Shown: piece by piece, positions 3,001-6,000 of the stretch | How positions within the stretch are numbered: position 1 is the stretch's first letter | Layout of the letters: each line of letters starts with the position of its first letter | Assembly (NCBI GenBank): GCA_963798285.1 | Contig: CAWCSR010000003.1 | Location: 784,905 to 848,904, forward strand | Source: an uncultured Thermoleophilia bacterium | GTDB taxonomy: Bacteria; Actinomycetota; Thermoleophilia; UBA2241 | Reading direction: 5' to 3' | DNA length: 64,000 nt | Notes under the pieces: model-generated | The model's database searches: none | What the model was told of the DNA's origin: nothing | The model's input: only the letters and a program-made list of their open reading frames with translations | Made by a program: the position numbers and the translations under genes

Positions 3001-6000
3001 TTCTCGTCGTAGGCCGTCACCGCCGTCAGGTCGTTGAAGTACTGGCGCTTCGCCGTGGTCAAGGCCAGGCCGATCGGCTGGCCCAGGGCGGCGTCGGTGG
3101 ATGTGGTCACCTGGTCGGCGAACCGGCCCATCAACTCCTCGGTACCGGCGATACCGCTCCAGTCACCGAGCCCGTAGCCGGTGCTGGCCACGAGCACGCC
3201 CTTCTGTCGCGCCATGGCCTGCGGCACGTCGAGCGACGGGTCGATGTCGGCCCAGCGGTCGTTCGCCTGATCGTCCGGGACGCTGAGCCCTGCATGGCAG
3301 CCGATCGTGAAGATGAGCTTGCCGGCGAACGCCGGAGACGAGGCGATCTCGGTGCTCGAGAGGAACTGATCGCTCCAGTCGTCGCCGGCCATCATCGTCT
3401 GGTAGCCGGCGCCCGAGATGGTGCCGAAGTGCGTGTAGTGAGAGTTCAGGTTGCCTACATCGCTGTCGGGAAGATCAGTCCGCAGATCGTCGAGACTCCA
3501 CGTGTCCGGCGTCTCCATCTGGGCATCCAAGCCTGCATTGGTGAGGATCTGGTTCACCCGCTGGGCGCCGTCGGTCATGAAGTCCTGGCCGGTGACGACG
3601 GAGCTTCCGCCCGTCAGGACGCCCTTGTCCACATTGAGGAACTTGTCGATGGTGCCGGCGATCTCGGCAGGCGTCTCGACGAGGCGCGCAACGGCGACAT
3701 CCGGGACGTAGAGCCAGCGGCTGCTGTACGGGATGGGGGTTTTGTCTGCGTAGTAGTCATCGGTCAGCACCTGGGACTTGAACAGCCCGCTCTCGAGCAC
3801 GCTGGTGAGGTCGAGGGCAGACTCGTCGGCATAGAGGCGCTCGTTGTCGAACGACGTCCGGTCGATCACCCGGCGCTGGGGGACGACCTCGTCGCTGCCC
3901 ACCAGCACGATGTACTTGATCGAAGGGTGACCGTGGTCGTTCGGATCCGCTGGATCCCCGTAGATGCAGTCGTCGATCTCCGCCCTGATGTCCTCAGCGA
4001 CGCCATTGGCGAGGTCGGTGTCCCACGGCGTGCGGTCCCAAGGGTCATAGATGCTGGAGGGTACCGCGAGGATCACGCCCTTGCCGGTCAGGTCACTGCC
4101 GCAAGCCGCATCGAGAGCAGGCTGGACTGTGTTCGACCAGGAATTCAGGCCGTAGTACGCGTCAATGCGCTGCGGCTGCGTGACGAACAGGGTCTGCGGA
4201 TCCGTCACGGTCGCCGGGTTCAGGATGGCCGGCTGCGTCGTGACGCCGCTCTTGACCTTCTCGGTGCCGCTCTTGCCCTCGTTCAGGAGGGCGGAGTAGT
4301 CGAGCTCAGGGGTCGTCTCCACCTGGAGCGTGTACGGCGCGACGTCCGAGTACGCGCCGTTCGCGCCCTTCACAGCGATGAACGTCTTGCCGTTCACCGT
4401 TTCGACGGTGACAAGGATGACCTCGTTCTGCGTCCCTGACGCGGCCGAGTAATCGCTGATCGTCCGCATCTGCATCTCTTCGTGACTGAATCCCAGCTCC
4501 TCGAACGTGATGTCGCCGCCGGACGTGGTCGTGTCGTCCAATTGGGTGAAGCTCAGATCGGAGAGCGGATAGCCGTCGAGGAGCTTCGTCTGGTCCCCGG
4601 TAAGGCTGGGCCCGAGCTGCGTGTAGAGCGTCGTGGCGTCGGGGTCGCGGTAGAAGGCCTCGAAGTCGCCGCCGCCGCCGGTGGCCAGCCTGCCGCCGCC
4701 GCCGGTGATCAGCCTGCCGCCGCCGCCGGTGGCCAGGCGCCCGCCGCCGAGACTGATCGTCCTGGCAATGGACTGGCCCTCGAGCGGAGTCATGTTGCTC
4801 GTCCACGTGTCGTAGAGGCCCTCGTCGATCGCGCCCCCGCCGCCGGTGATCAGCCTGCCGCCGCCGCCGGTGGCAAGCCTGCCGCCGCCGCCGGTGGCAA
4901 GCCTGCCGCCGCCGCCGGTGATCAGCCTGCCGCCGCCGCCCGTGATCAGCCTGCCGCCGCCGCCGGTGGCCAAGCGCCCGCCGCCGCCGGTGATCAGCCT
5001 GCCGCCGCCGCCGGTGGCAAGCCGAGCGCCGACGAACTGCACGCGGCCCGCATCGACTGTGCCGCCGGTGATGAAGGACGTGCCGGCCAGATCGGTTTTC
5101 GGGATCACGTATTCCGGCTGGTTGCTGTAATCCTGGATGACGGCTGCGTCGTAGTCGGCGGGCAGGTTCCTCAGGGTCACCAGGACCTGTGTCCCGGCGT
5201 CGAGCGGACTGCCGTCGGTCTTCGTGACCTCGTAGATGTCCACGTCTCCCGTGTGTTGGATGTAGGACTGGCGGAGGTCTCCATTGCCTCGGATCTGCGG
5301 TGTGCTCTCCGTGATGCGGTCGTTGCCGTTCTCTCCCTCGTCGGCCGACATGGCGTCGTTGTGGATGGTGATGGTGAAGGGCACCGTTGTCGCGGCGCCG
5401 CCGTTGTCGGCGGTGACGGTGAGACTGCCGTTGAGCTGATCGCCGTCGTCGCCGAACAGAGGCTCCGTGACGCCTTCGACGATGCCCGAATCCAGCGCGG
5501 CAAGATTGTCCTCGGTCACGTACGCTTCGGGCCGCGCGTCGACGCTGTCGCCGACGATGTGCCAGGAGGCGGAATGCGTCTCGGCCCATGCCGAGTCGAT
5601 GAAGCGGCCGACCAACTCGGCCGGTTGACCGTTCAGGACGTCCACGTTCAGGGCATGCACGCGCGGATCGAGTTCGCCGACCTGGATCGGCTGCTCCACG
5701 ACGCACCGGGCGCCGCTCGCGTTGGCCCCGACGTCGTCCGTGACGGTGAGCACGGCGCTGTAACTGCCCTTCGTGTCCGGCACGATGAAGCCGAGCGGGT
5801 CGTTGAAGCTCACCCAGTTCCGGTCCGGATCGACGTAGTCGATCTGCCAGTCCCAGCCCATTTTGCCCCAGTCGCCGTCGGGGCTCCACGCGTCGTCGGC
5901 GTACAGCCCCACGATGTCTCCCGCGTTGGGCGCCGACGGCTTCATCGTGATGGGTGGCGCGGCGACGGTGAAGTCACAAGTCTTCGTCGTGCTGACGCCT

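Follow-up and report, generated by a model that had tools for sequence, protein, structure and literature searches.

The eleven near-identical units found in two arrays within the gene for a giant secreted protein belong to a fast-evolving loop of tandem oligopeptides that recurs, in a form particular to each lineage, beside the C25-type peptidase domain of a large and little-studied family of giant secreted bacterial proteases. The unit is swapped wholesale between lineages, and the array is kept at the same loop across phyla. This loop interrupts a ~120-residue beta-rich, weakly PPC-like module directly upstream of the peptidase domain. The gene sits at the beginning of the window, by which we mean the whole stretch of 64,000 nucleotides from an uncultured Thermoleophilia bacterium that was analyzed. 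Coordinates of all features are collected in Table 1.

Results

Eleven octapeptide units lie in two arrays of a giant secreted protein

An earlier reading of this DNA, made from the letters alone (the sequence-only reading), had reported eleven near-identical units in two arrays, and this was borne out. A degenerate 24-mer matched eleven times in the window versus zero times expected from 100 shuffles, and TRF gave the two arrays scores of 129 and 270, the latter being the top score in the window. The counts given by the sequence-only reading (three units at 4666-4750 and eight at 4833-5026) stood, with the bounds refined to those in Table 1, and so did its estimate of about 27 codons between the arrays, to which a partial LGGG unit has to be added. 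Its 21-bp unit encoding a heptad had to be corrected: the unit is 24 bp or 8 codons long (RL[A/I]T-GGGG), and the consensus it wrote, GGGGRL(A/I)T, itself has eight residues. The units follow one another directly, head to tail, all eleven (8 in array A and 3 in array B) are exactly in register, and the four-residue RL(A/I)T motif is thereby presented eleven times with Gly4 spacers between. The statement that the Ala/Ile codon is almost the only difference between units proved right for the protein and wrong for the DNA, where seven silent codon variants occur as well (Arg AGG/CGC/CGG, Leu CTG/CTT/TTG, Thr ACC/ACG, and Gly GGC/GGG).

Both arrays are read in a minus-strand frame that stays open for 2,805 codons (3..8417) and has a GC3 of 0.86. 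Coding on the plus strand (PAAAAGDQ...) and in the other, Arg/His-rich, minus frame was considered and rejected; only the minus frame 3-8417 has coding-like GC3. The protein starts with an ATG at 8267-8265, preceded by GGGGGAG and followed by a signal-peptide-like N terminus of 33 letters. In addition to Peptidase_C25, it contains five OmpL47-type barrels, a Big_13 domain, and seven RCC1 repeats, and the family profile also includes a PKD-like module. The neighboring genes encode a LuxR/AAA regulator (upstream), a DUF3870 protein, a CoA-transferase, and the ammonium transporter Amt. In the closest full-length relative a different set of genes surrounds the homologue, and no LuxR/AAA regulator lies beside the gene there. 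We found no modifying enzymes or dedicated transporter near the gene, and no RiPP-type enzymes near the gene of the closest full-length relative.

Table 1. Features of the repeat-bearing gene, listed in the direction of translation (positions are those of the window)
Feature	Position	Strand	Remarks
Giant secreted multidomain protein	3..8267	minus	>2,755 aa; C terminus beyond window start
Beta-rich module, N-terminal half	5118..5315	minus	aa 985-1050; motifs GDVDIYEV, DYDAAVIQD; conserved in all relatives
Loop lead-in, non-repetitive	5025..5117	minus	aa 1051-1081 (31 residues); conserved only among closest relatives
Array A	4833..5024	minus	aa 1082-1145; eight 24-bp units RL[A/I]T-GGGG, order A I A I I A A I
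Inter-array spacer	4740..4832	minus	aa 1146-1176; 27 codons plus degenerate unit start LGGG
Array B	4668..4739	minus	aa 1177-1200; three 24-bp units
Post-repeat conserved segment	4467..4667	minus	aa 1201-1267; two family-wide motifs (15 and 11 letters)
Beta-rich module, C-terminal half	4308..4466	minus	aa 1268-1320; invariant motifs KGANGA.S, PYTLQVET
Clan-CD cysteine peptidase domain (Pfam Peptidase_C25)	2928..4250	minus	aa 1340-1780

The arrays adjoin a divergent C25-type peptidase domain

The domain downstream of the arrays scored 31.8 bits with Peptidase_C25 (PF01364), above the gathering cutoff of 23 (E=1.2e-7, HMM positions 65-368 of 374). Its putative catalytic residues are His1610 (3438-3440; LNSHYTHFG) and Cys1657 (3297-3299; KLIFTIGCHAG), an assignment that rests on the motif pattern of clan CD (H-G ... 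A/G-C) with a hydrophobic strand before each residue; both are 99% conserved among 133 aligned family members. AF2 modeled the domain with a pLDDT of ~95, and the top Foldseek matches of the model were separase, CED-3, procaspase-7, and caspase-8/FLIP (E 8e-5 to 1e-2), which points to a predicted caspase-hemoglobinase fold. Gingipain was not in the Foldseek top 50. Searching the PDB by sequence did not find it either; a single-sequence search returned nothing, and the full-family profile returned only PKD domains. Because gingipain is missing from both the top structure matches and the PDB sequence searches, we conclude that the peptidase is a divergent member of C25/clan CD. Judged from its sequence, the peptidase adjoining the arrays is apparently active.

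The loop splits a beta-rich, weakly PPC-like module

The sequence-only reading had a PPC-like domain on one side of the tract and the protease-like module on the other; we found the tract inside the weakly PPC-like module, which it splits in two. Both half-modules occur together in 90 proteins, and the insert between them ranges from 36 to 540 residues; in distant members it is 36-50 aa long and almost all repeats. The motifs of the post-repeat segment recur in distant relatives as PLSxM..G.DI.L.ELGL.

We modeled the region with AF2 from a 44-sequence alignment (overall pTM 0.76; an earlier run on 9 sequences gave a pLDDT of 36 and was unusable). Each half-module was predicted to hold four to five strands, with pLDDT values of 85-91 in the N-terminal half and 80-93 in the C-terminal half, and Foldseek of the model matched the peptidase domain only. 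Confidence dropped below 50 from about aa 1055 onward in the lead-in, was 23-35 for aa 1055-1212 with no secondary structure across the arrays (23-33 in array A), and was 46-70 in aa 1201-1267; a low-confidence helix was predicted in the inter-array spacer. The repeat loop is thus predicted to be intrinsically disordered, and the polyglycine-II or beta-solenoid fold that had been suggested for the tract found no counterpart in the model.

The PPC domain (PF04151) is a small beta-sandwich that accompanies secreted peptidases, and by eye it and the module of the window's family have similar motifs (GDVDxYxF, DxDLxL, GxYYIxV.G..G, and YxLxV). The window's own segment, whether intact or spliced, gave no PPC hit at E<=10. 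PPC was the best Pfam hit in five of nine short-insert relatives, at a sub-threshold 15-20.6 bits versus a cutoff of 25.9, with HMM positions 1-34/46 matching the N-terminal half, and in one relative (P0144) the model spanned both halves (HMM positions 3-69), again below threshold. A family-profile search of the PDB found no PPC or CBD structure. Unlike PPC, the module lies N-terminal to its peptidase and all its matches fall below the gathering score; nor is division by a repeat-bearing insert of 36-540 residues a described PPC feature.

A tandem array occupies the same site across phyla

Searching for homologues with the repeat included yielded only 9 proteins and was swamped by Gly-rich words; a repeat-free profile in a word-indexed search did little better, and an exhaustive representative search was required. 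With this approach, the peptidase region was found in 2,294 representative clusters (E<=1e-3). Where the window has its arrays, relatives from Thermoleophilia, Chloroflexi, and other MAGs have tandem arrays of their own, built from lineage-specific units such as GGGGRLVS, GGKGRLIS, GKIWGGG, PHLRS, PFFHS, SPFQL, GGFQS, GAYRN, PLQNI, and others. At least three perfect short units were present no more than 500 aa upstream of the peptidase domain in 73 of 99 full-length representatives. Perfect units lay exactly between the half-domains in 49/84, and many others had imperfect 11-13-mers there. Units at this site are 5, 6, 7, 10, or 11 residues long across relatives, and almost every one has a hydrophobic or aromatic residue adjoining a P/G/S "spacer" residue. 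Units differ even where relatives are ~50-70% identical in their other domains.

The sequence-only reading knew of no described repeat family that its heptad matched, and our searches agree. The window's loop matched no Pfam repeat family at E<=10, and the loops of relatives gave only sub-threshold or low-complexity matches (Extensin_1, Pentapeptide_4, and TMP). Our full-text literature searches, literal unit strings included, turned up no published description of the cassette. We rejected the pentapeptide-repeat family, whose best match was Pentapeptide_4 at 18.6 bits versus a cutoff of 38 (in the PLQNI array) and whose period the window's octamer does not share. RTX or beta-roll repeats (GGXGXDXUX) have a 9-residue period and a conserved Asp for Ca2+ binding; these were likewise rejected for RL[AI]TGGGG, which has an 8-residue period and no Asp.

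The loop gains and loses whole units

Array A has 8 units in the window, 7 in P0021, 6 in L001, and 5 in L012 (relatives that are 67-71% identical), and array B has three units in all four proteins of this unit type. The sequence of the inter-array spacer is kept in the same three relatives. Elsewhere in the family, P0054 has 26 units versus 13 in P0167, although their flanks are 100% and 99.8% identical and they belong to one 90% cluster, and L020 has 5+3 units versus 4+3 in L017-19. These data demonstrate that the loop gains and loses whole units. The earlier description of the tract as in-frame and length-variable (VNTR-like) therefore holds: within the family the loop is length-polymorphic, as the pair P0054/P0167 demonstrates, with the window's unit type compared only at 67-71% identity.

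The peptide appears to be under purifying selection

We compared silent and replacement differences among units defined at the DNA level. In the pooled arrays, distinct codon variants numbered 94 silent versus 62 replacement, where 39 silent were expected (p ~2e-20, a pooled value that overstates independence, since several loci are closely related). The window's arrays by themselves had 7 silent versus 4 replacement variants (p=0.03). At individual loci, the 23 SPFQL units of L007 contain six silent variants and no replacement, and L022 encodes its Arg by five different codons with no replacement in perfect units. Because there are many silent but almost no replacement differences among units, their peptide sequence appears to be under purifying selection, and the units are probably not merely young DNA copies. 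The recent expansion or ongoing homogenization proposed by the sequence-only reading is therefore half of the story, to which the silent excess adds purifying selection on the peptide.

These results bear on whether the loop is a passive disordered spacer, that is, a low-complexity surface loop resized by slippage or unequal recombination in which only flexibility and length would matter. Such a spacer should gather replacements freely, contrary to the silent excess within the arrays; nor would it be expected to keep its array at one loop across phyla through complete turnover of the unit, or to retain a hydrophobic or aromatic residue beside a P/G/S residue in nearly every unit. We therefore regard a passive spacer as unlikely, even though predicted disorder, variable copy number, a unit sequence that is essentially unconstrained between lineages, and an abundance of Gly, Pro, and Ser in the units are all features it would have.

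Discussion

We tentatively favor a reading in which the adjacent peptidase would be controlled by a pro-domain whose exposed loop serves as a multivalent (pseudo)substrate or processing segment. The loop could occupy the cleft of the neighboring peptidase and keep it latent or, alternatively, it could be the cut site where the pro-module is removed at maturation; the many copies would then provide redundancy or avidity. Removal of PPC domains from pre-peptidases offers an analogy for such maturation. The sequence-only reading had named a spacer, a processing cassette, or a ligand-binding array, and the processing cassette seems to us the most plausible of the three.

Another analogy is with pro-RgpB, the zymogen of a gingipain (family C25). 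An inhibitory surface loop of its N-terminal prodomain reaches into the active-site cleft as a substrate would and places Arg126 in the S1 pocket (PMC4138498). The arrangement in the window, as read from the sequence and the AF2 model, is similar in that a folded pro-module with an exposed loop would lie directly N-terminal to a C25-type catalytic domain, and in that the unit presents, on a flexible loop beside that domain, an Arg with hydrophobic residues after it. It is dissimilar in that the RgpB loop is single and non-repetitive, whereas the window's protein has 11 tandem copies and its relatives 5-26, with a unit sequence that changes fully between lineages, and homology of the upstream module to the gingipain prodomain was not detected. 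One inhibitory loop is enough in gingipains, and a latency function leaves the 5-26 copies unexplained.

We also asked whether the units match the specificity pocket of the adjacent peptidase. Arg or Lys is present in RLIT, GKIW, PHLRS, and GAYRN and absent from SPFQL, GGFQS, PFFHS, and PLQNI. Testing peptidase columns for covariation with R/K-containing units gave only weak signals (best p ~2e-4 over ~2,000 tests, with strong phylogenetic structure). That the peptidase domain is highly conserved while the units differ radically, with R/K in only some, argues against a strict match of unit to specificity pocket.

A second possibility is that the arrays are multivalent binding elements of the "stickers and spacers" kind, in which RLxT motifs on Gly4 linkers would bind a partner with avidity. 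Candidate partners are a substrate polymer, the cell envelope, one of the protein's own domains (e.g., the RCC1 propeller), or further molecules of the same protein. The sequence has an evident beads-on-a-string layout, and a single hydrophobic or aromatic residue in each unit is a recurring feature of the family. The apparent purifying selection on the peptide would also fit, as would a secreted protein rich in Ig, PKD, and OmpL47 modules like those of adhesins. Units that change between relatives ~50-70% identical elsewhere are nevertheless hard to reconcile with a conserved partner site, and binding leaves the constant placement beside the peptidase domain unexplained, so this too strikes us as improbable.

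We also considered whether the loop could be a multicopy peptide precursor, with the adjacent or another protease cutting once per unit and freeing many identical, lineage-specific peptides of 5-11 residues (here an octapeptide of RL(A/I)TGGGG register) that might serve as a signal, an antimicrobial, or a RiPP-like peptide. Clan CD includes peptide-processing and transpeptidating enzymes (legumain/AEP and PorU), and a conserved, apparently active member stands in cis to identical units that seem to be held by selection and are diversified between lineages. Excerpts from the literature provide plant and fungal precedents for repeated cores, in burpitides and Kex2-processed repeat proteins. Like those of cyanobactins, Kex2-processed proteins, and burpitides, the arrays are tandem 5-8-residue peptides whose core differs by species, and as in burpitide precursors, where the BURP cyclase is the enzyme, cores and enzyme share one polypeptide. 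Unlike these multicore precursors, most of the arrays have no recognition or spacer sequence between units, the carrier is huge, and there are no tailoring enzymes nearby. More than 2,755 aa for 11 octapeptides would be uneconomical, and neither modifying enzymes nor a dedicated transporter lie near the gene, whose surroundings the closest full-length relative does not share. We give the precursor reading only a slim chance; if true, with the peptidase cutting after secretion, it would define a previously unrecognized ribosomal peptide system in Thermoleophilia, Chloroflexi, and other soil and sediment phyla, a bacterial counterpart of the plant and fungal repeated-core precursors.

It is very unlikely that the GGGG-RLxT units stack into a polyglycine-II bundle, a beta-roll, or a solenoid. 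The regular 8-residue period with four Gly alternating with the beta-prone RL(I/A)T would suit such a fold, and AF2 can miss novel repeat folds when the alignment is not deep; set against this, the arrays were modeled at pLDDT 23-35 with no strands, they lack a Pfam repeat match at E<=10 and the Asp of an RTX-type Ca2+ roll, their copy number is free to vary, and units of 5, 6, 7, 10, and 11 residues at the same site cannot share one fold. That the arrays or their copy numbers arose by misassembly of a short tandem repeat is hardly credible: such repeats are error-prone in metagenome assemblies and some relatives have frameshift-like stretches in this region (P0007), but the two-array layout and the conserved spacer recur in independent assemblies (L001, L012, and P0021), the units carry distinguishing silent variants with the frame preserved, and the feature is found in hundreds of clusters.

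If the family-wide picture is true, thousands of giant secreted peptidases of abundant uncultured soil and sediment bacteria share an undescribed module. A loop that is rewritten in each lineage yet guarded from amino-acid change within a lineage usually marks fast-evolving, specific molecular recognition. The cassette would then offer a handle on the latency, maturation, targeting, or perhaps small-peptide production of these enzymes. In practical terms, it provides a natural length-polymorphic marker for typing strains among MAGs, and it is a spot at which these genes are often broken in assembly and gene calling.

Concerted evolution combined with protein-level selection is familiar from the NANP repeats of the Plasmodium circumsporozoite protein and from VNTRs of bacterial surface proteins. 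The cassette resembles these in its short identical units, its silent codon differences, its species-specific unit, and its strain-variable copy number. It differs in its setting; those repeats are free-standing in surface antigens or adhesins, whereas the cassette is a loop embedded in a domain next to a protease and belongs to environmental bacteria.

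Two arrays of a 24-bp unit in a giant gene

Tandem Repeats Finder (TRF) reported a 24-bp period in two arrays, and a degenerate 24-mer matched the window exactly 11 times, spaced within each array by exact multiples of 24 bp, with 0 matches in dinucleotide-preserving shuffles. In the coding frame, the unit reads RL[A/I]T-GGGG. TRF, the 24-mer, and translation confirmed the eleven units, their placement, and their Ala/Ile dimorphism as described in the sequence-only reading, whose "21-bp heptad" was a miscount: the period is 24 bp, and its own motif has eight residues. Its statement that the units differ almost only at the Ala/Ile codon holds for replacements, where GCC versus ATC is the sole difference across the eleven units, but not at the DNA level, where the units have seven synonymous variants as well (Arg AGG/CGC/CGG, Leu CTG/CTT/TTG, Thr ACC/ACG, and Gly GGC/GGG). 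Because TRF also finds a 72-bp (three-unit) higher-order period at 4831-5023, and because the synonymous Leu codon goes along with the Ala/Ile codon (CTG in Ile units, CTT in most Ala units), we conclude that multi-unit block duplication built part of array A. Some of the further short tandem repeats in the window lie within likely coding regions, and none resembles the 24-bp unit.

The arrays lie in a minus-strand frame whose start codon is most likely the ATG at 8267, with GGGGGAG ahead of it, and the N terminus of the predicted protein resembles a signal peptide. Neither the long plus-strand ORFs nor those in the other minus-strand frame were accepted as coding; they are by-products of about 68% G+C, and such shadow ORFs over the real gene could mislead gene callers. 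A Ser/Gly-rich segment with repeated SISGSG, SISAS, and SLSIS motifs, located after the first barrel domain and before the OmpL47 barrels, has no Pfam match and resembles a beta-helix or a stretch that forms polymers; P0007, a relative's database protein, begins with a similar segment. The regulator gene immediately upstream, on the same strand, is absent beside the closest full-length relative (locus L025) and so may have no functional link to the giant gene.

Features of the giant gene and its surroundings
Feature	Position (nt)	Strand	Residues (aa)	Details
Open coding frame	3-8417	minus		2,805 codons; GC3 = 0.86
Giant protein	3-8267	minus		>2,755 aa, continuing beyond the window
Ser/Gly-rich segment		minus	230-400	
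OmpL47-type barrels				five
Big_13 Ig-like domains				
RCC1 propeller				seven-blade
Array A	5024-4833	minus	1082-1145	eight units
Between arrays A and B				27-residue spacer, then degenerate LGGG
Array B	4739-4668	minus	1177-1200	three units
TRF array	4668-4749			3.4 copies, 87% matches, score 129
TRF array	4833-5016			7.7 copies, 86% matches, score 270 (highest in the whole 64-kb window)
PLSDLSF motif	4539-4559		1237-1243	
Shadow ORF	888-4439	plus		these three 527-1,183 aa, Arg-rich
Shadow ORF	4482-6071	plus		
Shadow ORF	4306-5889	minus		
AAA_16/AAA_22 + GerE regulator	9049-11331	minus		760 aa; LuxR-type, LAL/MalT-like
Further tandem repeats	11883-11998 and 39349-39817			periods 27/55, 15, 18, and 30 bp

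The arrays interrupt a beta module upstream of a clan-CD peptidase

The repeats are followed, about 140 residues on, by a domain that Pfam assigns to Peptidase_C25 (31.8 bits versus a cutoff of 23). Across 133 aligned family members, conservation is 99% at both His1610, within LNSHYTHFG, and Cys1657, and each residue follows a hydrophobic strand, which is the clan-CD arrangement. An AlphaFold2 (AF2) model built from a 44-sequence alignment (mean pLDDT 76, pTM 0.76) gave this domain a pLDDT of about 95, and the modeled domain matches the PDB structures of separase, CED-3, and caspases; sequence searches of the PDB did not retrieve gingipains. Profile, putative catalytic dyad, and fold were all tested and all agree with C25/clan CD membership. 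The domain is thus a divergent clan-CD enzyme, assigned to C25 by Pfam, and is apparently active.

Conserved blocks, the downstream one including SAASGT..EV.L, flank the repeats on both sides in every relative. HMMs of the two blocks found both, in the correct order, in 90 proteins, at distances of 36 to 542 residues; the shortest inserts are nearly all repeat (e.g., (DIPLQ)x5.8 in the relative P0094). In the AF2 model, both half-modules are confident beta-strands (pLDDT 80-93), and residues 1055-1212, comprising both arrays and the spacer, have a pLDDT of 23-35 without secondary structure, which predicts disorder and does not support the polyglycine-II or beta-solenoid fold that the sequence-only reading had raised. 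That reading had also placed the repeats between a PPC-like domain and the protease; the ordered blocks and the predicted strands on each side point instead to a position inside one domain. The "PPC-like" label itself is weakly supported. Among short-insert relatives, PPC (PF04151) is the recurrent best match, in one case spanning both halves, at 15-20.6 bits versus a cutoff of 25.9, but Pfam gave no PPC match for the window sequence, intact or spliced, and a PDB search with the family profile gave no PPC or CBD structure. We therefore describe the interrupted domain as a split beta module that is, weakly, PPC-like at most.

After every array, family-wide, there is a conserved PLSxM/I.F motif (PLSDLSF in the window), which resembles units of distant members (PLQNI, PLKDV, PLRSI, and DIPLQ); the arrays may have been born by duplication of this segment.

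One site carries different units in different lineages

In three sets of relatives, every member has a tandem array in this position: nine proteins from the first homolog search, eleven genome loci from Thermoleophilia, Chloroflexi, Dehalococcoidia, "Planctomycetia", and Actinobacteria MAGs, and thirteen metagenome loci. Units at these loci are Gly-first (GGGGRLVS, GGGGK[IV]W, GGYKHMP.., GRTPGI, GRIPGI, GGFQS, GAYRN, and GGFRQ) or otherwise (ARIRAIP[YVFW][DE]D, SPFQL, PHLRS, PHWGT, PFFHS, PFM[HN]S, TPYRN, and SPFRS). An exhaustive search with the repeat-free peptidase region retrieved 2,294 representative clusters at E<=1e-3, 750 of them at E<=1e-30. The representative nearest to the window, P0021, is 67% identical and has GGKG-RLIS units. 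Among the best 150, at least three perfect short units occur in the 500 residues that precede the peptidase in 73/99 full-length proteins, and perfect units lie exactly between the two half-modules in 49/84; many of the others have imperfect 11-13-mers there (e.g., PVRRGMDWEGL or LKLKPGIDLSQEI). Five-residue units predominate, and most units have a P/G/A/S position adjoining an aromatic or hydrophobic residue. The 542-residue insert of P0032, far larger than any other and perhaps folded, has 13-residue units (IDWDAIRNAAGP.) followed by degenerate, helical-looking W..(I/L)R repeats.

As the sequence-only reading had surmised, no named repeat family in Pfam matches the units of the window or its relatives, and a full-text literature search found no mention of these units or this architecture. 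A tandem oligopeptide cassette that keeps to a single loop next to a peptidase, while its unit is replaced in every lineage across several phyla, appears to be undescribed. Many of the family's gene calls, among them P0006, P0007, P0008, and several further database entries, start, end, or frameshift in the repeat region; P0007 has a PHGAA stretch there, and P0006 and P0008 have Arg-rich tails. This suggests that assembly or basecalling errors cluster in or near the cassette.

Array turnover and selection on the unit peptide

The in-frame, VNTR-like length variation proposed earlier is borne out: array A has 8 units in the window, 7 in P0021, 6 in L001, and 5 in L012, with three array B units in each, and P0054 has 26 PFQLS units versus 13 in P0167, from the same 90% cluster with flanks 100% and 99.8% identical. 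L020 has one GGFQS unit more than L017-19. Within a protein, every unit shows the residues peculiar to its lineage: the variable position of PVRRG-M/A/T-DW is M throughout P0025, A throughout P0028, and T throughout P0029. The arrays therefore turn over as wholes. Just upstream of their arrays, L009 and L021 (Dehalococcoidia/Chloroflexi loci) have a lone GEFQSGDAGQT unit, which keeps the FQS motif of sister GGFQS arrays, whereas the array proper is now AYRNG; in L022, lone unit and array are both GFRQ. These lone units look like fossils of unit replacement, the non-adjacent copy sometimes co-changing.

We defined units by DNA identity (>=60% to the array consensus), which avoids choosing them on protein sequence. 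Across 18 loci, several of them closely related and with some silent variants co-traveling with duplicated unit types, 94 distinct codon variants were silent and 62 replacement, compared with an expectation of 39 silent (binomial p about 2e-20); within the window the counts were 7 and 4 (p=0.03). Six silent and zero replacement variants occur among 23 SPFQL units, and eight GGFRQ units use five Arg codons. The counts point, in a direction robust to the related loci and the co-traveling variants, to purifying selection on the unit peptide within a lineage. Recent expansion or ongoing homogenization, as first suggested, is only part of the account: the units are not merely young DNA copies.

Possible roles of the loop

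Directly upstream of the apparently active clan-CD peptidase, the beta module of the secreted protein displays a loop of identical short peptides that is predicted to be disordered, varies in length, and is constrained in sequence. Pre-peptidases lose their PPC domains by removal. In pro-RgpB, a surface inhibitory loop of the N-terminal prodomain crosses the cleft substrate-like, with Arg126 in S1 (PMC4138498). By analogy, our leading but tentative reading, at somewhat short of an even chance, is that the loop serves the adjacent peptidase, either as a multivalent (pseudo)substrate or as a processing segment of a pro-module; in the window it would present Gly4-Arg-Leu-(Ile/Ala)-Thr. Against it, the peptidase domain is very conserved and the units are radically different, many without R/K; a crude covariation scan of peptidase versus units found no clear specificity-pocket partner, and a peptidase-serving role gives no reason for 5-26 copies.

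A spacer indifferent to its sequence is unlikely, as the excess of silent variants contradicts it. We give an equally low probability to a multivalent binding array, which has no known partner and does not account for a site next to the peptidase. A multi-copy peptide precursor is attractive but a slim prospect, being uneconomical and having no tailoring or export genes nearby. A folded glycine repeat is very improbable given the modeled disorder and the variety of unit lengths, and an assembly artifact is scarcely credible because the architecture recurs in independent assemblies.

The pattern itself is strong and widespread, and it lends itself to direct testing. As a working part, the cassette is most like a prodomain latency loop; as a phenomenon, it is akin to coding VNTRs that evolve in concert and are selected at the protein level.
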